Of a stretch of 64,000 nt of DNA, positions 2,749-41,351 are shown piece by piece (positions within the stretch are counted from its first letter, which is position 1; each line of letters opens with the position of its first letter). Both the position numbers and the translations under genes were made by a program. Under the pieces are notes generated by a model. It was given only the letters and a program-made list of their open reading frames with translations. It was not told the DNA's origin and made no database searches. This DNA is from Dictyostelium discoideum (lineage: Eukaryota). The DNA lies in the NCBI GenBank assembly GCA_000004695.1, contig CM000151.3:4480001-4544000 (forward strand). The letters run 5' to 3'.

Positions 2749-3298
2749 TTATTTCTTGGCAACTACTTTCTTTTTTGAGGCGACAACTTTTTTACCAGAT
2801 GAAGAAGCTGAAGCAGTTTTCTTTAATGCAACAACTTTCTTCTTTTCAACTTTCTTTTTGATTGCAGTGGTTGGCTAAAAATATAAAAAAAAGAAAAAAA
2901 TATTAAAAGTTAATGTGAATATAAAAAATATTTGCAAATTATTTATTATATTGTGTATATAAAAAAAAAAAACCACCAAAAAAAAAAAAAAAAAGAAAAA
3001 AAATATTTATTAATAAAACATACCTTAACTGTTGTGGTTGATTTCTTACGAACAACTTTGGAAGCAACTGGTGGTTCTATAATATAATTTTTTTTTTTAA
3101 AAAAAAAAGTATTAGAAAATAGAAAAAAAAAAAAATGACTAAAAAAAAAAAAAAAAACGTACGATCTGCTAATCTTTCTGGTGCTTTGATTATTGTTCTT
3201 GAACTGGAATGAGTAATAACACCTTGAAGAGAAAATGGTTTTCTTGTAGTTGTTGATTTCTTTGTTGTGGCAACTTTAGCAGTAGATGTTTCTGTCAT
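2749..3298 (-). CDS. Small Lys/Thr-rich basic protein of about 105 aa, histone-H1/HMG-like in composition. Three exons: 3298..3163, 3076..3024, 2874..2749.
   Basis: ATG at 3298. Donors are c|GTACGT and aag|GTATGT; acceptors are ttatag| and ttttag|. The spliced product reads MTETSTAKVATTKKSTTTRKPFSLQGVITHSSSRTIIKAPERLAD-Q-PPVASKVVRKKSTTTVK-PTTAIKKKVEKKKVVALKKTASASSSGKKVVASKKKVVAKK*. The model is built from splice consensus and frame continuity only. Confidence 0.5.
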
Positions 3299-3881
3299 TT
3301 TTTTTTTTTTTTTGGTTGGTTGAGTTATTGATAATGATAAAATTTTATTTAATTTTTTTTTTTTAGAAAAAAAGGGAAAAGTTTAGTTGGTAGTCAACTG
3401 TTTTTTTTCTATAATATATTTAAAATTGATTAAAAAAAATAAAATGTTGATATTTTTAATTTTTTTAATTTTTTTTTTTATATTTTTATTTTTATTTATT
3501 AACAGATAAAAAAAAAAAAAAAAAAAAGGGATTAGTAAAAATTAACAATGATTTTAGATTTTTTTTTTTTTTTTTTTTTTTAATACACACATGATAATAA
3601 CAAATATTTTGAAAAAATATGTATTGTCAAATATATTTTAAATAACAAAAATAAAAATGAAAAAAAAAAAAAAAAAAAAAAAAAAATATCAAAATTTCAT
3701 TTTTTTTTATTTTATTTTATTTTTTTTTAATTATTTTAAATTTCAAACCTAACGGCTATAAATAAACATTATCCACACCTTTTAAAAAAAAAACTTTTTT
3801 ATTTTTAGATTTTTTATTTTTTTTTTATTTATATCATTTTTATTTATTAACATATGATTGAAATATTATCTTATTTTAACA

Positions 3882-4018: not shown

Positions 4019-7000
4019 TTAAATTGTTTGGATTGTGGGGAAATTATTTATAAATAAATTAGATAAATCTTGATAACCAAGAGATTGAGATAAACTATAC
4101 CATTGTTTAACATCATTAATTTTTATAGAAGCTTTACAATTATTAATAAAAAAAGTAAAGAATTCAATATGATTTAATTCAACCAAAGAATGAATAGATT
4201 GTAATGAACTATCAATAATAATTTTATCTTTTAATTTACAATCATTTAACATCCAATCTAATAAATCAATACGTAATACTTGAATTGCTGATTTAAAAAC
4301 TAAATTAATATCTAAACAATTATTATTATTATTATTATCATTATTATTTGAAATACAAAACTCATTTATAAAACGATTTAATAATTGTTTATCTTTAAAA
4401 TTACCAAATATTTTTGATAAAACTTGTAGTAAAATATTTGAAGTATTATTATTATTATTATCATTATGAAGTTGGTCTTGATTTTGATCTTGATCTTGTT
4501 GTAATTGTTGTTTTAAAAATCCTTTAAAACATTTAAATAATGGTTCAATTTCACCAATATTACCAAAGAAATAAACATCTTTTTCATTATCTGAAAATAC
4601 ATCAATTCTAATATGTTGATGAGTAAATAAACGTGGTTGTAAATTATTATAATTTTCATTTTCATTTTCATTTTCTTGAAATAATGATTGTAATTTTAAA
4701 AGTAATTGAGTTTCACTAGAATTAAAAATTGAATCAAATGAAAATTCAGGTTTCATTAAACATTGAGATAAGAAAGGATCTTGTAAAAGTCTTGATGAAT
4801 CTTTATCTTTTTTTTTAATTAAATAATTAAATCTTTCTTTTGAAATTATAAAAGATGAAATTTTAATTGATTTAATTGTTAAATAATTAAAAGTTTCAAA
4901 TAAATCTTCAGAAACTTTATAATTACCAATTGATAATAAAATATCTCTAACTAATTTAATATTATAATAATTTGAATCAAAACATTGTATAATAGTTTTA
5001 TATAAATGTTCAAATAATGGTACTAATATATCATTATAATAATCATCACCACCACCACTACCATTACCACTACCACCTTTTTTAAAATTCCAATTTTTTA
5101 AAATTAATTCTAAAACTTTAAAAACCAATTGAAATTGAAATTTATTTTTATAAATTTTCTTTCTAAATCCATCATCTTCAGCAACTTTATAAAAACAATA
5201 TTGTTGAGTTTGATAAACGAAACCATTGATATCATTCAATTTAATTGAATCAATATTGCTATTAAAATTTAATGATGATAAAATTATTAATGCTTCTTCA
5301 AATTTATTTTCAAATATAAAATTTATTACCAACATAATTGATTCATTTTGAAATTGATTATAATTTATATTTAATTGTTTTAATAATTCAATTTTATTTT
5401 CACCCTCTAAAGTAACATGTAATGATTTAAATAATGAAGAAATATATAAAATCCAAGTTTGACAATCGAAAATTCTATAATTTGATTGATTTAGGTAATC
5501 GAAAAATTCAATAATTTTATCTTTTTCAATTTGATTTGTAATTTCATTAAAAAATTCTTTTTTATAATCAGTTTTTGCTAAAATTTCTCTTGAACCAAAG
5601 TTTTTAAATACAACACCAATTTTTAAATCCAATTCTTTTAAAATCTTTAAATTAAATGTTAATAATGATTTTAAAAATGGTATTGAAAAACAATAATAAT
5701 CTGGAATATGTTTAAATAATGATTTAAAATAATTTGAAATTGAAATTGAATTATTATTATCATCATCATCGCTCTCTAATAAATTCATTGAAATTGGTAA
5801 AAATTTAATTTCAAGTTTAATTGATGGATTTCTAATTTTAAATATAAAATCAACATCTTGTTTACATTGTATTGTTGATAAGTATTGATTTAAGCCATAG
5901 TATTCAATTTGATTATCTCTATAATTAGGTAAAATAACATTTTCATAATACCATTGATATTTTTTCATTGGTGATATTTCACCAACAGGGAAATCAATAT
6001 TAATAAAACTCTCTCTGTATGGGAATCCTTTAATATTTGTTACTTTTTCAACCAAGTCAACTGAAAATTCTCTATAGTATAATAAACAATTTGCAAATGT
6101 TGGCCAAAATAAAAATTGTAAACCTGTATCTTTTTTAAGATTTTCTTGAGACCTATATTGGCAATATTGATTTATGAATTCGATTATTCTATTCTCACTT
6201 TCTTTACTACCATCAAATAGTTTATCCTTATATGTATAATAATTATTTAAATATTTCTCTTTTAAAGTATTTGACCATTCCGGTGAGATTTTACTTTGTC
6301 TACTCAAACTTTTACTTGTTAAATATTTTAAAGCATTGATTGAAAGTAATGAAAATGTATATTCATAAACAACTGAATCAAATAATGGTAAATCTGCTAT
6401 AACATCATCATAATCTACTAAATATTCAAAATATAATAATTCTTTATCAATTGATGACATTGGTGATTTAAGTATTAAAATTTTTAATTTTTTTATATAA
6501 TCTTCATTATCACTACCACTACCATCAATTTTATTATTTAATAATAAATTATAATAAATTAATTCTTGAATTGATTTATCTTTTAAAGTTTTAATAATTT
6601 TATCAACAACAATTGAACAAATATTAGTTTCATTATCATTTTCTCTATCTAATAAATTCATTTCTAATAATTTTATTGAAATTGTTAAATTTGATTTAAT
6701 ATTTAATAAATGATTTAAATGAATTTTTTCCATTTCTTTAAAATTAATTTCATTATATAATCCTTTATTTAATACCCATTGAATAATATCTATTGATCCA
6801 TTTATTGTTGATAATTTTAATGATTTATTTTCAATCTTTCCTTTTAATAATTTACTACCACTACTACCAATACTATTTATTATAATTTCATTATATAAAT
6901 ATTCCATAACTTCAATTGAAGATGAATTTGATAAAGCATATTCAATAGTTGTTGAATCAATTTCAAATTTTTTATAATATATATCTAATTCTTTATTTAT

Positions 7001-7468
7001 TTCATTTTCTTTATCTGATTTTTGAGTTTTAAATAAATATTTTATAAAATTTAAATTATTAAATTTAATTGATAATTCTAATAAATTTGAAATTTTAAAT
7101 AAAATTTCTCTTTTTAAATTAAATAATAATAATAATGATTCTTCTTGTGATTCGTGTGATTGTTGTTGTTGTTGTGATTGTTGTTGTGATTGTGATTGTT
7201 GTTGTTTTATTAATACTTTTTTAAATAATAATTCTATACCATCTCTATTAATTTGAACAAATTCTCCACTTTTTAATTTATAATTTAATAATGGAAATTG
7301 ATTTTTTTCAACCATAAATTTTAAAGAAGAGATATGTTTAAATTTTATTCTATTCAAGTGATTGTATTGAGAGAGTTCATCATAGTTTAATTTATCATTT
7401 GAAATATGATAAAATATTTTATTTCTTAAAAATAAATTTTTATATACTTTAAAAAAGAGTTCATCCAT
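4019..7468 (-). CDS. Hypothetical protein, 1149 aa, Asn/Ile/Lys-rich, intronless
   Basis: Uninterrupted ORF starting at a genuine ATG (MDELFFKVYKN...). It has poly-Q (QQQSQSQQQSQQQQQ) and poly-N/GSGNGSGGG low-complexity tracts. I recognised no domain. Confidence 0.7.
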   Translation of the reverse strand: MDELFFKVYKNLFLRNKIFYHISNDKLNYDELSQYNHLNRIKFKHISSLKFMVEKNQFPLLNYKLKSGEFVQINRDGIELLFKKVLIKQQQSQSQQQSQQQQQSHESQEESLLLLFNLKREILFKISNLLELSIKFNNLNFIKYLFKTQKSDKENEINKELDIYYKKFEIDSTTIEYALSNSSSIEVMEYLYNEIIINSIGSSGSKLLKGKIENKSLKLSTINGSIDIIQWVLNKGLYNEINFKEMEKIHLNHLLNIKSNLTISIKLLEMNLLDRENDNETNICSIVVDKIIKTLKDKSIQELIYYNLLLNNKIDGSGSDNEDYIKKLKILILKSPMSSIDKELLYFEYLVDYDDVIADLPLFDSVVYEYTFSLLSINALKYLTSKSLSRQSKISPEWSNTLKEKYLNNYYTYKDKLFDGSKESENRIIEFINQYCQYRSQENLKKDTGLQFLFWPTFANCLLYYREFSVDLVEKVTNIKGFPYRESFINIDFPVGEISPMKKYQWYYENVILPNYRDNQIEYYGLNQYLSTIQCKQDVDFIFKIRNPSIKLEIKFLPISMNLLESDDDDNNNSISISNYFKSLFKHIPDYYCFSIPFLKSLLTFNLKILKELDLKIGVVFKNFGSREILAKTDYKKEFFNEITNQIEKDKIIEFFDYLNQSNYRIFDCQTWILYISSLFKSLHVTLEGENKIELLKQLNINYNQFQNESIMLVINFIFENKFEEALIILSSLNFNSNIDSIKLNDINGFVYQTQQYCFYKVAEDDGFRKKIYKNKFQFQLVFKVLELILKNWNFKKGGSGNGSGGGDDYYNDILVPLFEHLYKTIIQCFDSNYYNIKLVRDILLSIGNYKVSEDLFETFNYLTIKSIKISSFIISKERFNYLIKKKDKDSSRLLQDPFLSQCLMKPEFSFDSIFNSSETQLLLKLQSLFQENENENENYNNLQPRLFTHQHIRIDVFSDNEKDVYFFGNIGEIEPLFKCFKGFLKQQLQQDQDQNQDQLHNDNNNNNTSNILLQVLSKIFGNFKDKQLLNRFINEFCISNNNDNNNNNNCLDINLVFKSAIQVLRIDLLDWMLNDCKLKDKIIIDSSLQSIHSLVELNHIEFFTFFINNCKASIKINDVKQWYSLSQSLGYQDLSNLFINNFPTIQTI

Positions 7469-7499
7469 TTTTTTTTGAATATGAATACATTAAAATGAT

Positions 7500-7532
<33 letters not shown>

Positions 7533-8655
7533 AAAAAAAAAAGAAAAAAAGAAGAAATTATTTAAAATTGTTTTTTTTGAAAATAAATATCGTGATATTT
7601 TTTTTGTGTGATTGAAAAAAAAAAAAAAAAAAGAATTTATTTAATTTTTTGTTAAAAAAGTGAAATAATACAAATAGCATTACGTTTTTCAAATCATTTT
7701 ATTTTTTCATTTTTAAACTGTTATGAATAAATTAAAATAAATTATGTATAAAAAAAAAAAAAAAAATAGGTTTTAAATTAATAATATAAGGTTGAGGTAT
7801 TTAATTATTAATTTTTATTTTATATTTTTTAACCTTCTTAAATTATAATATATTTTTGATTTGCTTTAAAATGTAATTATTTGATAAAACCATTAAGAAT
7901 GATAAAAAATTGTTTTTTTTTTTTTTTTTTTATAAAAAAAAAAATTTGGTGATTGTCGTAGTAATATAATTATCTACCTATCAACAATGACATAGTGCAT
8001 AGATAAATCTTTCCTTTCTCTGTCATTGGATTAGTACCGATTTATATTAGGCAAACAAACACCTTTTTTTTTAAAATTATTTTGAGCCATCTGGAACAAG
8101 TTAACTGTTTGAATGGTTAGGTCATTTCAAAATTGATATTATTATTGAAATTTGATATTAATCTTGAAATGCACTATAGAGATTAACTATAATAATATAA
8201 TTTGAGAATATTATACTCTTTTTTTTTTTTTAAATAAACAATAATAATAATAATATTTACTTTTTTTAAAGTTAAAGTGTCTTGGTTGGTTGTAAAGGTA
8301 ATGGTGGGAAAAAAAAAAAAAACTCTTTAAATACTTTTCTTTTTTTTTTTTTCAAATAAAATCAAATTGATATATTAGGAAAATACCTTTTTTTGATTTA
8401 AAGATCTCACAAATTAGATTTTTTAAATAATAATTTTTCTAAAAAGGAATAGTTTTTCAAAGGTTTTTTATTTTTTTAATTAATTAAATTTTTTTTTTTT
8501 TAACTTTAAATTTGAAAATTTTATTTGTTTTTAAATATCAAAATGATCAAAAAAAAAAAAAAAAAAAGAAAAAAAAATAGAAATAAAAAAAGGAACAGAA
8601 ATAAAAATACCATAAATACTATTGAGTTTTTTTATTTTTTTATTTTTTTTTATTT

Positions 8656-9805
8656 TTATTCTGGACCAAATACTAATTTTGGAGGTTCTAAATTATTTTC
8701 TTTTGAATAAAATGAAGGTTCTTTAGTTTGTAATAAAGATTGTGGGAATAAATGAATTGCAAGGTCATGGAAAATAAATTGAGTTGTATAATTATTTGGA
8801 AATAATAATTCATCATGAATTCCAAATGTTTTAGTGGTATAACTGAATGGTAAATGGTCCTCCTCAACCCTATTAATACTATCAATATATAAATTAAAAC
8901 TATTTCCAATGATTATAATATTTGAAAGTGTTTCCCAATTCGCCCATAATACATTATCATATAATTTTCTACCACAAAATGGCATGTAAAATATTGTGAA
9001 ATTTTCATCATTATTAGTAGTATTCGCTTTTCTTTTTCCTTCTTCATTAATTTCAATTAATTTAAAACCAATTTTTGATATTAATTGTTTCTCTAAATTA
9101 TTCATAACTGGATCATATATATAAATTGATTCAATATTACTATACATTGATTTAATAGATGTTATATATGCTAATTGATCTAAACATTTCTTACTTGAAC
9201 TAAAATCACCAATACCATAACATACTATTTCATTAACTTTTGAAAATATATCTTTAGTGTCACTTTCTTTATTATTGTTATTAAATTTATAATTAAATTG
9301 TAATTCAAGTATATCTTTAAAAAATTTAGTTTCTTTCATTTTATTTCTTTTTTGGAAATAATATTAGTTTTGAATTTTTGAATTTTTGAATTTTTTTTTT
9401 TTTATTTTTATATTTAAAAAAAAAAACATACTCTGATTCAATTAATGAATTATATAATTTAATTAATTGTTGTTCTTCTGATAATTCTTCAACTATTAAT
9501 TTATTATTTTTCTTTTTCTTTTTATTATTATTATTATTATTGTTATTTTGTGGATTATTTTGTAATTCTTTTTCACTTTCTTGATAATTTGAAGTCCATT
9601 GATTTTGTTTTTCAAAATATTTATCTCTAATCTCTTTATTCTTTTTATTATCATTGGTTGTAATTGTTTGTTCAATCTTTTGATTTACTTTTAAAACTTT
9701 ATTTTTTTTACCTTTTACAACAATTTGAAATCCATCTTCGTCTAGCAATGCTTCTGATTTTACTTGTGGTTGTTTATTATTATTATTTTTATTATTATTT
9801 GACAT
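8656..9805 (-). CDS. SRR1-like protein. The C-terminal SRR1 domain ORF is 8656..9339, joined to the N-terminal ORF 9341..9805 by a probable intron.
   Basis: The ORF at 8656..9339 carries SRR1 family motifs (VCYGIGDFS, QLAY, YDPV, TIFYMPFCGRKLYDNVLWANW, IIIGNSF). The upstream same-strand ORF (MSNNNK...EDGFQIVVKGKKNK...) ends 1 nt before its ATG, in another frame. A GTATGT donor at 9431-9426 and an AG acceptor at 9264-9263 would join them in frame (...NSLIES-D-DTKDIFSKVNEIVCYGIG...). The acceptor choice is uncertain. Confidence 0.55.
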
Positions 9806-30634: not shown

Positions 30635-33139
30635 ATGACAACAACGTCAAAAATCATTAATGATGGTGAAGGTGAAGATGTTAAAGGTAATAAAAATATA
30701 AATAAAAAAAGTTTAATTGATGAAAATAGATTAGATGAAAAAAAAGATTTATTAAGTGATAAAGTTGAGAGTAAAACCCATTGTTCAGTAAAGAGAATGG
30801 CAGTATTAACATCAGGAGGTGATAGCAGTGGTATGAATCCAGCAATTAGAGCATTTGCAAGACAAGTAATGTTAAAAGGAGCAAAAGTATTTGCAGTTAG
30901 GGAAGGTTATAATGGTTTGGTTAACGATTCAATTGTACCTTTGAATTGGGGATCAGTAGCAGGTATTATCTCCCGTGGTGGTACAATCATTGGTACAGCA
31001 AGAAGTGCTGAATTTCGTACACGTGAGGGTAGAAAGAGAGCCGTATTCAATTTGGTGAAGAATAGAATCGACAATCTATTGGTTATAGGTGGTGATGGCT
31101 CATTGACAGGCGCAAATTTATTGAGAACTGAATGGTGTTCATTGCTTGAGGAGTTGGTCAAAGATGGCAAGTTGACATTGGACGTTATGGAGCATTTCCC
31201 AATTTTATCAATCGCTGGTATAGTAGGATCGATCGATAATGATATGTGTGGCACAGATTTAACGGTTGGTGCTGATACAGCAACCAAGAGAATTTTAGAG
31301 GCAATCGATTCAATTCTATCGACAGCAGTTTCACATCAACGTAGTTTTGTCATTGAAGTTATGGGAAGAAATTGTGGTTGGTTGGCATTGGCATCGGGTG
31401 TTGCAACAGGTGCAGATTATATATTGATACCTGAATCACCACCAGATGATGGTTGGGAGCAAACTATGGCTGATAATCTTGAAAGGGGTAGATTGTCAGG
31501 AAGAAGATGCAGTTTGGTCATTGTGTCAGAAGGTGCAATCGATCGTCAAGGCAAACCAATCACTTCAGCCTATGTTAGACAATTCCTTGAGGATAAAGGC
31601 CACGATGCAAGAATCACCATTCTTGGTCATGTACAACGTGGTGGTACACCAACATTTTTAGATCGTTACATTGCAACTCGTATGGGTATAGAAGCAGCAA
31701 ACTATTTCTATGATTCAACCATTGAACAATTGAAACAACCTGTATTGATCGGTATGAGTGGTATGGATACCATTCGTTCACCATTGATGGAATGTGTACA
31801 AAAGACTCAATCAATTGCATCACTCATCAAGGAGAGACGTTTCAATGAGGTTGTCGATGTTAGAGGTGGTATGTTTAAAGAGTTTTATGAGATCTTCATT
31901 GCATGTTCAAATTTACATCGTAGAAAGGTTGAGAGCAAGGGAATGGGTGTTTTAATACTTCATAGTGGTGGTCCATCACCAGGTATGAACCCATGTGTTC
32001 GTGCTTTCACTCGTTTAGGTATTGATCATGGTTACACAATGTATGGTTGCTTCAATGGATTTGGTGGTTTAGCATTGGGTGAAATTGAACAATTACATTG
32101 GATGACTGTAAATGGTTGGTCTGTTATGGGTGGTGCAGAATTGGGTACCAATCGTTCCATTCCAAATGATAGTAACATAGAGGCTATCATTGCAACTCTT
32201 GAACGTTTTAAAATCAATGCAATTCTAATGTTTGGTGGATTCAATGGTTATTTGGGCATAGCAAAACTCTACGAATATAGAGAGAAATATCAACAACTTA
32301 AACGTATCTCAATCATTGGTGCACCTGGTACCATTGCAAACAACGTACCAGGTACAAATATCTCAATTGGAAGTGATACCTCTTTGAATAACACATTGGA
32401 TGCATTAGATAAAATCAAACAATCAGCAGTGGCATCACGTCGTTTATTCGTCGTGGAGGTCATGGGTGCCCATTGTGGTTATTTGGCTGCAATGAGTTCT
32501 TTAACCTCAGGTGCTGAACGTTCATATATAATGGAAAGAGGTATCACATTGAATACACTAACCAAGGATTTGGAAATGTTTGTTGAACGTTTCAAACGTG
32601 AACATAGAATTGGTCTAATTATTAAGAGTGAACTTGCTAGCAACACCTACTCAACTCATTTCATTTATTCACTCTTCAAAGAAGAAGGTAAACATTTATT
32701 CGATGTCCGTGAATCTATACTCGGTCATTTACAACAAGGTGGTACTCCTTCTGCAATTGATCGTATCTTTTCAACTCGTTTAATGAATCATTATTATCAA
32801 TTCTTGGAAAACGATCTCAAAGAACATGGTCATCTTCAAATGAATGGTTGTATTGGTTTCATTGATGGTGGTATTCATTACACTCCAATGCAAGAAATGA
32901 TCGAAGAAATGTCTGATAAATTTAGACGTCCTCGTTCCCAATGGTGGATGGATTTGGTTGAAACCTCTCAAAATATCTCTGTTTTCCCTTTAGATGACCC
33001 TTCCTCTACTAATTTCGAAGGTTGTAATTCAAATTTATCGGAACAAGATAGACCTATTAAAAAATCTGATATTTCTTCTCCAACCTCTTATTCTCAAAAA
33101 ACTTTTGACCCAAATGTTAATCCACAATTTACTCTATAA
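30635..33139 (+). CDS. pfkA: 6-phosphofructokinase (ATP-PFK), 834 aa
   Basis: The PFK motifs are present (MAVLTSGGDSSGMNPAIRAF, IGGDGSLTGA, a second half with GGPSPGMNPCVRAF). The duplicated two-domain eukaryotic PFK architecture is visible, and the length matches the 834-aa Dictyostelium enzyme. It is intronless. Confidence 0.93.
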   Translation: MTTTSKIINDGEGEDVKGNKNINKKSLIDENRLDEKKDLLSDKVESKTHCSVKRMAVLTSGGDSSGMNPAIRAFARQVMLKGAKVFAVREGYNGLVNDSIVPLNWGSVAGIISRGGTIIGTARSAEFRTREGRKRAVFNLVKNRIDNLLVIGGDGSLTGANLLRTEWCSLLEELVKDGKLTLDVMEHFPILSIAGIVGSIDNDMCGTDLTVGADTATKRILEAIDSILSTAVSHQRSFVIEVMGRNCGWLALASGVATGADYILIPESPPDDGWEQTMADNLERGRLSGRRCSLVIVSEGAIDRQGKPITSAYVRQFLEDKGHDARITILGHVQRGGTPTFLDRYIATRMGIEAANYFYDSTIEQLKQPVLIGMSGMDTIRSPLMECVQKTQSIASLIKERRFNEVVDVRGGMFKEFYEIFIACSNLHRRKVESKGMGVLILHSGGPSPGMNPCVRAFTRLGIDHGYTMYGCFNGFGGLALGEIEQLHWMTVNGWSVMGGAELGTNRSIPNDSNIEAIIATLERFKINAILMFGGFNGYLGIAKLYEYREKYQQLKRISIIGAPGTIANNVPGTNISIGSDTSLNNTLDALDKIKQSAVASRRLFVVEVMGAHCGYLAAMSSLTSGAERSYIMERGITLNTLTKDLEMFVERFKREHRIGLIIKSELASNTYSTHFIYSLFKEEGKHLFDVRESILGHLQQGGTPSAIDRIFSTRLMNHYYQFLENDLKEHGHLQMNGCIGFIDGGIHYTPMQEMIEEMSDKFRRPRSQWWMDLVETSQNISVFPLDDPSSTNFEGCNSNLSEQDRPIKKSDISSPTSYSQKTFDPNVNPQFTL

Positions 33140-33888: not shown

Positions 33889-36194
<2,306 letters not shown>

Positions 36195-36210
<16 letters not shown>

Positions 36211-36375
36211 CGTAGTGAATTTTATTATTTAATTTCACTACAGTAGCGTAGTGAAAAAAAAAAATCACTGACCTTAAATTTTTTTTTTTTTCAAAAAACA
36301 AATAAAGTTTATTAAATTGAAATTTTATTTTTTGTTTTAATTATTATTTTATTTATTTTTATTATAATTATTGTT

Positions 36376-36414
<39 letters not shown>

Positions 36415-38671
36415 CAATTTTTTTTTTTAAATTTTTTTCAATTTTTATTTGTTTATTAAATTGTAATTTTATTTTTTGTTTTAATTATTATTTTATTTAT
36501 TATTATTGTTAATTTTTTTTTTTTTTCAATTTTTTTTTTTTTAATTTATTTTTATTAATTTATTTTTATTAACTCCCTGAGTTGTTCAATTGCTTGATTT
36601 ACCATATCACTGTAAACACTGCACACAATTGAATTTTTTCTAGCTTTGTTACCTCTGGTGCATTTGATGTTTTTGCATTTTCCTTTGTATACAAAAAAGT
36701 CCAAATATAATTCGTTTTCTATTACAGTTTTTACACAATGTTGGTGAAATTGTTTTGATTTTAATTCTAATGCTTCTAACATCATATTTGGATTTTTAAC
36801 GATTAAAGCATCACCACTATTTACATATAGTACTTTGGCTGCTTTTTCGAGGAATTTAGTCAAATTTTCCTCTGAATCTAACTATTCTTCATTGCCATAT
36901 TCAATGGCTAAATTTCTTAAGAGTTTTATCGAATCTATTAATTCTTCGATCATTCTTTTTTTTTGAAATTTTTTTTTATTTTGTTTTTTCAATTTTTTTT
37001 TTTTATTTTGTTTTTTCAATTTTTTTTAAGTTTTATTTTTTTTTATTTTTTTTTGAAGGCTATTGATTCCATCTTCCAAAAATTCAAGTTTATAAAGTTG
37101 TTTAGTGTCTTCCTGTATTACCTTATGAATTTTACACAAAATCAATATTTTCTATTAGAATTAAATATAAAATTTGTTAATTATTACTGTTTCATATATT
37201 ATTAATCTTTATGTTTTAATTACTTACATTATTTTTTTTAATTTCTAGAAAGAGTACAGTATCACCAACTTTCAATCCCTTTGGTGGTTTTGAATTCCAT
37301 TGATTTTGGTAACTTGTGAGATTTTCAAGAATAATAGCTGTTCTTTCTTCTTTTGAAACATCTGAAACACCAATTGATTGAGAGTCTTGTTCTGATTGAA
37401 CATTAATAAACAAAGGAACAATACCAACAGCTTGAGATGGTGTCATTTTAATTGTTCTTGTTTTTGTATTATTGTAATCATACAAAGCTTGTTTTAATAG
37501 TTCAGAAAGAGACCTAGAAGTACCATCAAGAAAACTAAAATTTATTTATAAATGATTAATTAATAAACATATCGATAATTTATATTGTTCACAATATCAT
37601 ACTCTTGTTGTTTTAATTTTGAGATCCTCTCCTTGATAGTTCGATTCAATCTTTCTACCATACCTTGAGTTGTTGGTGTACGAGGAGCTCCATGTGCTGA
37701 CTTGGAGCCTGGAAAAAGTTTTAGGAATTCTTTTTGGACTTTGTTTTTAAATTCACGTCCATTATCGCAGTGCCATACTTTCACAGGTTTGCCAAAGTAC
37801 GTGAGAGCCAAAAAATTGTATATGGGAACTGTTCTCTTTGTTGTCAAACATCTAAAAAATAAATGATAATTAAAATAAAAAAAGAAAACTAATAAATTAA
37901 TAAATAAAAAATAAATACCTTCCAGTAGCAAATTTTGTAAAAGAATCTATGCATAGAATAATGTAAACAACATCGGTGTCGTACGGTTGTACAGAGTCAT
38001 ATTGGATAAGATCATCTAGTTTAGTTAGTATCTTTTCATTATCATCATCGTATGTAACTTTTTCTTTATGTTCACCTTTAATTGATGTTAAATCATAAAC
38101 CAATCTTGAGTATTCCTCGGTATCTACAATTGGAGCAAAATCCTTTGTTATACCTATTAATTTATTTAAATTATTAAAAGAGTTTTAATATAAAAGTTAC
38201 AAAACATCATATAAAAATGATTGATACCAAACCTTTTATTCTATTTCGTTGGCAAATGTCACACGTATCTACTGCATCAGATACAAAAGAATACAATCCC
38301 ATATTATAATATTTAGTCTTGTAGTTCCCATAGGTTGCATCTCTTCCTATATGACCTTTATGCATTTCTTCCCAGAGTGATACCATTCTATAATCATTAA
38401 TTACTTCTAAACACACTTCTTTTGATATATTTCTATCTCCGCCACAATTCATGACTTTTTTTTCAATTCTAAATAATTTTTCTTTTCTGTTTCTGTTTTT
38501 TATTGGTCAGAATTTAAAAAATGATTGTGTTATTGTAAGGAAAAATATTTACTCATCATGTAAAAATTTATAATTTTTATGTTTAGTATTTTCAAAATTA
38601 TTATCTTCAATAAATTTTAAATAATTTATAATTTCATTTATTTTATCTTGTTTCATTTTGGGAAAATGAAA

Positions 38672-38706
<35 letters not shown>

Positions 38707-38961
38707 TGTTGGGGAAAAAAAAAAAAAGTTTTGGCCCAAAAAAAAAAAAAAAAATAAAATAAAAAAAAAAAAAAATAAAATAAAAAAAAAAAAAAATAAA
38801 AAAACTTATATAGAACTAATAATCAAATAAAAGATAATAATTTAATAAACTTTATTTGTTTTTTGAAAAAAAAAAAATTTAGGGTCAGTGATTTTTTTTT
38901 TTCACTACGCTACTGTAGTGAAATTAAATAATAAAATTCACTACGCTACTGTAGTGAAATT
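36195..38961 (-). mobile_element. DNA transposon of about 2.77 kb with roughly 78-bp terminal inverted repeats, encoding an integrase-like (rve/DDE) transposase. It is a TDD/Ginger-type element like Dictyostelium Tdd-4/Tdd-5.
   Basis: The left end (36195..36272) is aatttcactacagtagcgtagtgaattttattatttaatttcactacagtagcgtagtgaaaaaaaaaaatcactgacc. The right end (38883..38961) is its exact reverse complement. The internal minus-strand ORFs encode an H2C2 Zn-finger, a DDE core and a C-terminal domain. About 80-bp subterminal direct repeats lie at 36293..36380 and 36437..36520. Confidence 0.85.
36555..38656 (-). CDS. Transposase of the retroviral-integrase type (H2C2 zinc finger + DDE catalytic core), interrupted by several short spliceosomal introns. 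The exon coordinates are approximate.
   Basis: The ATG at 38656 gives MKQDKINEIINYLKFIEDNNFENTKHKNYKFLHD. A ga|GTAAAT donor and tttag| acceptor join it in frame to IEKKVMNCGGDRNISKEVCLEVINDYRMVSLWEEMHKGHIGRDATYGNYKTKYYNMGLYSFVSDAVDTCDICQRNRIKG (HHCC). The next exons give …IQYDSVQPYDTDVVYIILCIDSFTKFATGR and …WHCDNGREFKNK…HGAPRTPTTQGMVERLNRTIKE (D,D,E). A further exon gives …KPPKGLKVGDTVLFLEIKK. Confidence 0.7.
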
Positions 38962-38968
38962 TTATTGA

Positions 38969-41351
38969 AAATTCCCTACAACAATCATTATTCATGGTAA
39001 ACAATTTAGAAATGATTACTTTTATTCAAAATTTGGTGATCAAGCAAATTTAAATGTATTTTCAAATGGTATGTTTAAAAAACTATTTAAATTTAATTTT
39101 TTATATTATTTTTTTAAACTATTAAATTAATATTCTGGTTCTAATTTTTTTTTTTTTTTTTACTTAATTTTTTATAGATTGTTTTGAATTTCCACCAAGA
39201 GTTTCAAATTTAACTTTATTATCTAGTAATAGCGTTACATTAAACTCTAATCAAACTATTGGATGGGAAATTGTAATTGATAGTGGTGGTGGTATTAAAA
39301 TTAGTTATGTATTTATACATGTAATTTCAAATTTAGATAAAAAAGGATACACATTTGAATTCTATCCAAACTCTACCTCATGGGAAACCACAATTGGAAT
39401 TGCTCTATCACCAGAAACAACACCATCACAAATATTTAAAATTTATAATGCAACTATTATTGACGAAAGAGGAATTAGATCGGACCATATTGATAGTTTT
39501 AAAGTTGATGAAATTTTTTCAAATCAAAGTCCAATTTATCCAATTTCAATTTCACCATTTTATTTATTTGATCTTAGTTTATTTAGCATAACAGTTAATT
39601 CACCATTCATTACTGAATCTGTTCCACCAACAATTACACTTGTAACCCTACCATTTGAAAATGTAGATGATTTTTTACAATATTCAATTTTCTTTCAATT
39701 AGTGTCAACTGATAATGTTGGTATATTAAAAAGCCATATACCACAAGTTTATTTATCGCATTCATCAAACTATGGAGATTTACAAATTTTCCAATGTAAT
39801 ACAGCTATTAATGATACGTCTGAAACAACTTGTAATTATTATGTTACTTGTAAAGTTGAATATGGTTATGGTATTCAAAACCCTGTATCTGTTTTAGTTT
39901 ATGGTGTTGTTGATACTAGTTTCAATGTTGCAAGCTATAGTAGTTTAAGTGAATCCCAAACCTTTGATTTTAATGGTCTTTCCAATAAAAAAACACCTTC
40001 AATTTCAAGTTGGACACCATTAACACCATATAATAATAAATTAACAATTTTTGGTAGAAATTTCCCAACATCAGGTGGAAGTGCTTATTTATATTATACA
40101 GATAGTGATATTGATAATTTAGTAACTTTGAAATTTATTCATTCATCATCTGTAATGGCAGTTTTAGAAATTGGACAAGGTTTAAAACCATTTGTAGTTT
40201 ATACTCAAAATTCAAATAATGAAAAATCTAATAAAGTTGAAATTCATTATTTAGGAATTCCAACATCTTCTTCATCCTCATCTTCATCATCAGATGATGA
40301 TTCAACATTACCACCAGTTTTATGTTTTGATAATTGTGGTGGAACATCAAGAGGTACTTGTATTCCAAATGTTGGATGTAATTGTAAATCACCATATAGT
40401 GGTATAAATTGTCTTTCTGAAACAATTAAAATTCCAAAACCTCAAACAAATACAACATCACCAGATTCAAGAAATGAATTCCCTATTAGTGGTTCAGATA
40501 TTAAACTAAATACAATCATTTCAATTGTAGCATTAAGAGAATTAGATTTTCAAGGTAAACAGGTTAATATTCATTATTTTGATAGTTGGAATTTTACAAC
40601 AATATCTCAAACCAATTTCACATATAGATCACCAATTTTAAAAAACAATCAACATGTTTCAAATATATCAGTAGCAATGGAATGGCATGAACAATCTACA
40701 ACTATTACATTTGCAAAACAAAATCTCACAATTAATCCATCAACTTTGAAATATTATATTTCATTAGATAAATACCCATTTGCATCATCATTAAATACAC
40801 TTGATTTAATCATTAAATCAATGTTTAAAAGTTCACAAACTGATGATGTATGTGGCAGTAAAGGATTTTCATTAAATGATGGAAATGATTATATGACATT
40901 ACAAATTGGAACATACTCATTTGAAGGTAAATTTATAAAAAAAGCAATTATCAATGGCAATAGAATTGTAACAATAAATAATAAATTATTAAATGAAAAT
41001 CAACTAAATAGTAATTCAACTATAACTAAAGAAAAAGATTCATCAAATCAACTTTCATCCTTTATCTCAATTGAAATACCTCATTATGATTCAAATGTAT
41101 TATTAGATCCAAGTTTTTCAGTTTTATTAGATTCAAATGAATCATATAAAAACTCTGAAAATTCAATTTGTACTTCAAAAAAATCCTCAAAACTTACTAC
41201 CGCTCAAATAATTGCTATTGTTATTGTTTCTGTAGTTTTTGTAATAATTCTAGCTCTCTTTATAATCGTTAAATTTTCAAAATCTGATAAATTTTTATCT
41301 ATAAGAATTTTCTATTATAAATTATTTAAACGATTTAAGAAAAAGTATTAA
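38969..41351 (+). CDS. EGF-like domain / single-pass transmembrane protein, the C-terminal half of the gene split by the transposon. Exons are 38969..39068 and 39178..41351.
   Basis: The open frame begins right after a TGA at 38966-38968, next to the right TIR. It reads FPTTIIIHGKQFRNDYFYSKFGDQANLNVFSN, then a g|GTATGT donor and ttttatag| acceptor lead into …CFEFPPRVSNLTLL… An EGF-like Cys pattern follows (CFDNCGGTSRGTCIPNVGCNCKSPYSGINC), then a C-terminal TM helix (IIAIVIVSVVFVIILALFIIV) and a short cytoplasmic tail. There is no signal peptide or ATG of its own; the listed 'M' at 39702 is a GTG. Confidence 0.55.

Follow-up and report, generated by a model that had tools for sequence, protein, structure and literature searches.

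The 64-kb window analysed here, a stretch of Dictyostelium discoideum contig CM000151.3, carries the intronless gene pfkA (30635–33139) and, directly downstream of it, a gene for a ComC-family membrane or secreted protein (33889–41351, plus strand). A coding exon of this second gene is interrupted, between the stretches encoding ...CTGTLPFL and IIIHGKQF..., by a 2,786-bp element lying antisense to it (36198–38983, minus strand), which is very probably a copy of Tdd-4, a D. discoideum DNA transposon of the Ginger2/TDD group, that inserted recently and is damaged in two places. The limits of the element follow from blastn alignment to three intact copies (L009, L010 and L011) and were fixed by an empty site (L003); these loci, together with a further copy, L001, come from another D. 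discoideum assembly (GCA_054883475.1 for L001 and L003).

Insertion site and host gene

The empty site was located by using the pfkA protein of the window, which is identical in both genomes, as an anchor. There, an uninterrupted 4,675-bp ComC-family gene encodes 1,380 aa with the domains DUF7743, DUF7035, DUF7034 and ComC_SSD, and the insertion point reads ...CCATTTTTAATCATTATTC..., translated ...CTGTLPFLIIIHGKQF..., with the empty site reading ...TTTTTAATCATTATTC.... Since deletion of 36198–38985 from the window reproduces this gene with no difference, the target at which the element integrated was ATCAT. The right copy of the 5-bp target site duplication (TSD) is intact (ATCAT, 38984–38988, plus strand), and on the left only AT remains (36196–36197). 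A D. purpureum homologue confirms that the insertion stretch is coding; the only match to the host junction peptide at a strict E-value cut-off was a partial protein of D. purpureum, whose sequence breaks off where the element is inserted. Elsewhere in the host gene, an exon-like open reading frame (ORF) at 34734–35120 on the plus strand runs into more than 40 consecutive tyrosine codons, encoded by a TAT repeat.

Apart from the insertion, only about 11 substitutions and some 12 indels in homopolymers distinguish 20597–45994 of the window from the empty-site locus, over 22.5 kb. Judged by this comparison, the two genomes are near-isogenic and possibly represent related laboratory lineages. Because the empty site lies in a nearly identical genome and the gene is restored exactly, the insertion is recent and polymorphic. 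With the element antisense in an exon, the host gene is disrupted in the window genome, and the allele, otherwise 100% identical to the intact one, looks like a fresh null allele, which would be fixed in the strain from which the window derives. An empty site in so similar a genome, together with the single substitution that separates the element from intact copies (see below), is direct evidence of very recent Tdd-4 movement in this lineage and of its capacity to inactivate genes in a haploid genome that is densely packed with them. For annotation, 36198–38983 should be masked as a Tdd-4 remnant and the ComC-family gene recorded as an insertion-disrupted allele, and the integrase-like ORF inside the element should not carry the name of a host "integrase catalytic domain-containing protein".

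Ends and terminal repeats of the element

In gene orientation, the 5′ terminal inverted repeat (TIR) is complete, spans 145 bp (38839–38983) and starts TGTTGTAGGGAATTTTCAATAAAATTTCAC on the minus strand, a terminus that it has in common with L001 and L002. The right terminus of the element is thus 38983, ending ...CCCTACAACA. The 3′ TIR (36198–36318) is truncated: comparison with the 3′ end of L001, and of both window ends with each other by gapped alignment, shows that TIR positions 26–145 are kept and that the outermost 25 nt (TGTTGTAGGGAATTTTCCATAAAAT) are missing, so that TTCACTAC... passes directly into host DNA. At its tips, therefore, the element has a complete TGTTG... end on the right and none on the left. 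Owing to an AAT microhomology the left boundary is ambiguous within 36195–36198. A first-pass annotation, made from the DNA letters alone, had placed the element at 36195–38961; the right end has to be moved outwards by 22 nt, and on the left, at about 36198, the element breaks off short of its true terminus.

The same annotation had read the repeats at these ends largely correctly. Its exact TIRs of about 78 bp correspond to 79 nt of exact complementarity between the arms starting at 36195 and 38961, which extends to about 124 nt if one mismatch and one indel are allowed. The doubled motif that it had noticed is a 23-nt sequence, TTTCACTACAGTAGCGTAGTGAA, present twice per end at a distance of 36 nt (36197–36219 and 36233–36255 on the plus strand, with mirror copies at 38901–38923 and 38937–38959), four occurrences in all against none expected in shuffled sequence. 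Each motif reads as an 8-nt palindrome around a 6-nt spacer, and these palindromes are presumed transposase-binding sites. The subterminal direct repeats, given as roughly 80 bp, exist as a pair of about 90 nt (36307–36400 and 36451–36538, plus strand) that differ by one mismatch and a 9-nt indel; they are found at the left end only, in the 3′ untranslated part with 4–9% G+C.

The transposase gene and its product

The overall G+C content of the window is 22.8%, against which the transposase exons reach 29% and the introns 7.5–22%. The gene lies on the minus strand and consists of six exons separated by five GT..AG introns, which upon splicing yield a 1281-nt ORF of 426 codons. Exon 1 (38553–38656) begins with the ATG at 38656 and is followed by intron 1 (38493–38552, 60 nt); exon 2 (38233–38492) holds the HHCC motif (H79, H82, C112, C115) and is followed by intron 2 (38154–38232, 79 nt). 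The first catalytic Asp, D142 (VYDLTS), is encoded in exon 3 (37919–38153), and D229 (HCDNG) and E266 (GMVERLN) in exon 4 (37603–37851), with introns 3 (37852–37918, 67 nt) and 4 (37535–37602, 68 nt) behind them. Exon 5 (37228–37534) ends in the first strands of an SH3-like beta domain (KVGDTVLFLEIKK), and after intron 5 (37152–37227, 76 nt) a truncated exon 6 (37026–37151) is native up to ...INSLQKK and then runs through six new codons, IKKNKT, into the TAA at 37026–37028. All five splice choices are validated by the identity of the first 420 residues (420 of 420) with an independently annotated 715-aa D. discoideum protein, P0035, which is encoded at four loci of assembly GCA_054883475.1. 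The first-pass annotation had followed at least four introns and named as fatal to its view an element from which no spliced ORF could be recovered; the five introns found here give an uninterrupted reading frame, with the same splice sites used in independent gene models.

The product is integrase-like by several measures. Pfam Integrase_H2C2 matches with 32.9 bits against a cut-off of 25.5, and rve (27.9) and rve_3 (23.7) both fall slightly under theirs. A phmmer search of Protein Data Bank sequences retrieved the integrases of Rous sarcoma virus and prototype foamy virus (PFV) at E values of about 4e-6, with the catalytic DNG and VER aligned. The HHCC motif and the catalytic triad that had been claimed are both present, with the spacing of the latter being D-x36-E instead of the 35 residues first stated. 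D142 was chosen as the first Asp because V(Y/F)DLTS is conserved in a sister family of 45–48% identity; the segment IQYDSV, suggested for this role by the PFV alignment, is not conserved in the Tdd-5-like proteins of that family and was rejected. For structural comparison, we used the AlphaFold model of P0001, a relative with 90% identity and not the window product itself, for which Foldseek listed the integrases of PFV, simian and human immunodeficiency virus, maedi-visna virus and Ty3 at the top, with E values of 5e-10 or weaker. This result supports, at the level of a predicted model, an integrase-like layout of N-terminal domain, core and SH3-like domain. The C-terminal beta domain covers P0001 residues 346–409 (predicted local distance difference test score, pLDDT, about 70–83), and the breakpoint of the window copy falls at residue 395. 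The "SH3/chromo-like" C-terminal piece first described thus holds for its SH3-like part, clipped by a deletion, and not for the chromo-like part: no Pfam match to the chromodomain PF00385, which chromovirus and Polinton-type integrases carry at the C-terminus, was detected in the window product at E values up to 1, and although PF00385 is present in the distant relatives P0018–P0033, Tdd-4 proteins do not align there.

Among solved structures, those of retroviral and Ty3 integrases come nearest to the product, and one could therefore also suppose an integrase fragment of a long terminal repeat (LTR) retrotransposon such as Skipper or DGLT-A. We consider this practically negligible in probability. 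Neither within or next to the element (36198–38983) nor in the intact copies is there an ORF for reverse transcriptase or RNase H, the terminal repeats are inverted and not direct, and the intact copies of 3.8 kb hold only the integrase-like gene and a second ORF, ORF2, between TIRs with 5-bp TSDs. An LTR-type integrase with flanking LTRs, the other finding that the earlier annotation would have taken as a refutation, is consequently not what lies here; the closest relatives are Tdd-4 copies. The element instead combines the features of a cut-and-paste element of the Ginger2/TDD group, with TIRs and no reverse transcriptase or RNase H, and an H2C2 plus DDE core without YPYY or GPY/F, the beta domain reading CKIHKV in place of GPY/F.

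Family assignment

Protein homology search with the spliced window product returned D. discoideum proteins annotated as "hypothetical" or "integrase catalytic domain" at 90–99% identity, and proteins of this family are encoded at no fewer than 11 loci of AX4. A sister cluster at about 48% identity includes DDB_G0290955, which has been named Tdd-5 in a study that counted 19 Tdd-4 elements (PMC3386910). In Bao et al. (2010, PMC2836005), the integrase-type DNA transposons listed for D. discoideum are only two: TDD-4, with 3,839 bp and more than 10 copies, and TDD-5, with 3,783 bp and at least 1 copy. Both have 5-bp TSDs in that work, and the Ginger2 termini are given as TGTNR. As the 48%-identical cluster is Tdd-5, the window family occupies at least 11 AX4 loci and only two integrase-type elements are listed, we assign the window family to Tdd-4. 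The Tdd-4/Tdd-5 grouping of the first-pass annotation, drawn from an intron-containing integrase gene inside TIRs, can therefore be narrowed to Tdd-4, both by the protein identity to P0035 and by the near-identity to Tdd-4 copies.

These copies define the intact element. It measures about 3.82–3.84 kb (L009: 3,821 bp; L011: 3,831 bp), has termini TGTTG...CAACA, a near-perfect TIR of 145 bp (defined on L001) and clean 5-bp target duplications, namely CATAT for L009, ATGAC for L011 and TCATC for L001; all three start with TGTTGTAGGGAATTTTCAATAAAATTTCAC and end with ...CCCTACAACA. The intact 715-aa transposase comprises the HHCC zinc module, an RNase-H-fold D,D,E core, the SH3-like beta domain and a long C-terminal tail, and the last 295 residues of P0035 hold RLRGRPHK, an AT-hook-like RGRP stretch, and 17 SPxx units. 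Tdd-4 (reference sequence AAFI02000006.1:352615-356458, or the Wells 1999 clone) is reported to have 145-bp inverted terminal repeats, TG...CA ends, SPXX repeats and GT-AG introns 1–5, of which the window copy retains all five introns at 60–79 nt. A sixth, unusual intron is said to lie further 3′, in a region that we take to fall within the segment deleted from the window copy. Tdd-4 is already known, and the window copy is degenerate and ordinary apart from the recency of its insertion.

Two deletions and their consequences

Against L009–L011, the alignment of the window copy falls into two blocks, with a single substitution in 2,789 aligned bp besides homopolymer indels. The blocks are separated by a gap of 1,028–1,033 bp, with an A8 run common to both of its edges; in the window this run forms the junction of the internal deletion (37047–37054, T8 on the plus strand), and it stands at both breakpoints in the intact copies. 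At 2,786 bp the window copy does not reach the length of about 3.8 kb, and since this shortfall is made up of the internal deletion and the 25 nt missing from one TIR (2,786 + 25 + ~1,028 = ~3,839 bp), it is a derivative of Tdd-4 and not a member of another family. Of the two explanations first offered for the short length, the deletion derivative is thus the right one, and a different family member is not. The internal deletion removes the C-terminal 295 of 715 residues, and with them the SPXX repeats, one of the hallmarks of Tdd-4, the entire DNA-binding tail and the final two strands predicted for the beta domain, leaving 420 native residues followed by IKKNKT. The second deletion, at the left junction, took 28 bp: CAT from the target duplication and 25 nt from the TIR. 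AAT stands on both sides of it.

A compact, autonomous or potentially active relative, i.e. a distinct 2.8-kb member with a functional shorter transposase, would have in its favour the intact 5′ 1.9 kb, an ORF without defects through residue 420 and the presence of HHCC and D,D,E. Against it stand the single substitution relative to the 3.8-kb copies and a simple gap at an A8 microhomology, a new C-terminus that is six codons read from an A-rich spacer, the clipped beta domain and the missing terminus; moreover, IKKNKT was not the C-terminus of any of the 33 matches or of the cluster members with retrieved sequences. We regard such a member as highly improbable.

The damaged Tdd-4 copy is almost certainly immobile and probably dead: because one cleavage terminus is gone and the transposase is truncated, it would be neither autonomous nor mobilisable. 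The initial view that it is potentially active cannot be upheld, with 295 of 715 residues lost at the C-terminus and 25 nt of one TIR, including the TGTTG/CAACA tip, absent. It could instead be a non-autonomous derivative that full-length Tdd-4 transposase mobilises in trans, the missing 25 nt being an aberrant but tolerated end. Intact transposase genes are present in D. discoideum, both 23-nt subterminal motifs are kept at each end, and a form of Tdd-4 without exon 3 and the first part of exon 4 propagates, being found at no fewer than five AX4 loci and in another assembly. Integrase-type enzymes, both retroviral and of the IS3-type DDE kind, act on a conserved terminal CA (see also Bao et al. 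2010). All complete copies examined start with TGTTG and end with CAACA beside the TSD, whereas at one end of the window copy the CA tip and part of the TSD are lost, which makes mobilisation in trans very unlikely in our assessment.

As for the origin of the damage, the internal deletion may come from slippage or abortive gap repair, and was possibly already present in the donor copy. The junction deletion would fit a break at the transposon end that was then repaired, for instance by microhomology-mediated joining after a failed one-ended excision. Two proposals go further. First, the 28-bp loss, centred exactly on the junction, may have been left behind when Tdd-4 transposase failed to complete an excision at one end and the AAT microhomology served for the repair. 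Second, by analogy with the KP repressors of the P element, the 426-aa product may act as a dominant-negative regulator of Tdd-4. This product keeps HHCC, DDE and the clipped beta domain and is without the SPXX/AT-hook tail, and a truncated Tdd-4 isoform has reportedly been proposed by Wells as an inhibitor. We consider this pair of ideas doubtful; if either were true, the allele would preserve a natural trace of a Tdd-4 that is still active and limits itself in near-isogenic strains of D. discoideum.

Several points weigh against our interpretation or narrow it. The name Tdd-4 rests on exclusion of Tdd-5, copy number, length, TSD, termini and the traits reported for the element. The P0001 model is of low confidence overall, with a mean pLDDT of 51 and only the core and the beta domain reaching 70–90. 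Both inner 23-nt motifs are kept at the truncated end, and a single allele is compatible with more than one sequence of events and mechanism for the two deletions.

ORF2

Downstream of the transposase gene lies ORF2 (36555–36953, minus strand), the 3′ ORF of the element. It begins with a 23-codon leader (MIEELIDS...GNEE, 36953–36885), followed by an in-frame TAG (36884–36882), 108 codons (LDSEEN...LIKIN, 36881–36558) and a stop. L001 and AX4 models share this in-frame TAG. With a G+C content of 27–30% between flanks of 4–9%, ORF2 appears coding-like, and in intact copies it is annotated by the gene caller as a separate downstream gene with a product of 110–114 aa (in L009 at 5231–5629). The product is rich in Cys and His (HQHC...CKNIKC...C). 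A Pfam search assigned it to no family, a search of 1.8 billion proteins yielded no homologue outside Tdd-4 copies, only repetitive junk translations, and no counterpart was found at L007, the one Tdd-5-like locus examined. By these searches, ORF2 is an orphan found only in Tdd-4 copies.

Other copies and related elements

A second Tdd-4 fragment is not present elsewhere in the 64-kb window. Many loci carry a form in which CQRNRIK is joined to VWHCDNG, so that exon 3 and the first catalytic Asp are absent (P0003, P0049, P0051–P0053 and P0055; in AX4 DDB_G0292352, DDB_G0276645, DDB_G0282083, DDB_G0287117, DDB_G0292954 and others). A deleted Tdd-4 version of about 3.4 kb is said to recur, and presumably this form corresponds to it. 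Its presence at many loci suggests that some Tdd-4 deletion derivatives are mobilised in trans.

The L001 copy of Tdd-4 contains three insertions in the same orientation that resemble miniature inverted-repeat transposable elements (MITEs), of 758–760 bp each (3108–3867, 5299–6056 and 7108–7867). They have CACAGC...GCTGTG termini and are 98–99.6% identical to one another, and at the first site TA is duplicated. In AX4, DDB_G0282355 (P0036) ends by reading into this sequence. For a tRNA-like stretch in the MITE-like element, ARAGORN gave no tRNA. The element might be thug-S; one gene has been mentioned as homologous to Tdd-4 as well as thug-S (PMC3386910). At L008, a heavily deleted Tdd-4 (7675–8729, minus strand) with a 282-aa model containing H2C2 and rve and with an ORF2 tail at its end adjoins a Tdd-5-like copy, a neighbourhood that suggests clustering of Tdd-4 and Tdd-5-like elements.

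Comparison with known systems

With Tdd-4 as described (Wells 1999; Repbase/Bao et al. 2010), the window element shares the species, the identity over 420 residues with an annotated family protein, the five GT-AG introns, HHCC plus DDE and the multi-copy state and, at its intact end, the terminus of the TGTTG...CAACA pair, the 145-bp TIR and the 5-bp TSD. It differs in the absence of about 1.03 kb, encoding the C-terminal 295 aa, and of 25 nt from the outer part of one TIR together with 3 nt of its TSD, at a length of 2,786 bp. The recurrent deleted version (cluster 2, e.g. DDB_G0292352) is likewise an internally deleted derivative of Tdd-4; however, exon 3 and the beginning of exon 4 are what it has lost, and it retains its C-terminal tail and is present at many loci. 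The internal deletion of the window copy lies in another region, and none of the other copies examined shows it. Tdd-5 (the DDB_G0290955 family) has the same architecture and host, V(Y/F)DLTS, CDNG, GMVER and a conserved C-terminal region in common with it, at a protein identity of only about 45–48% and without an ORF2 homologue in the one locus examined. Metazoan Ginger2 elements are alike in their TGTNR termini and TIRs of 50–180 bp (Bao et al. 2010, PMC2836005), but they make 4-bp TSDs at RTATAY, in contrast to Tdd-4 and Tdd-5, whose TSDs are 5 bp long (PMC2836005), and core sequence identity is low. In its general form, an internal deletion at a short repeat that leaves an N-terminal transposase fragment, the window copy resembles Ds from Ac and KP from the P element, and a repressor role of its transposase fragment is a speculative extension of this analogy. 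Unlike Ds and KP, however, one end of the window copy is destroyed, and mobilisation in trans is consequently unlikely.

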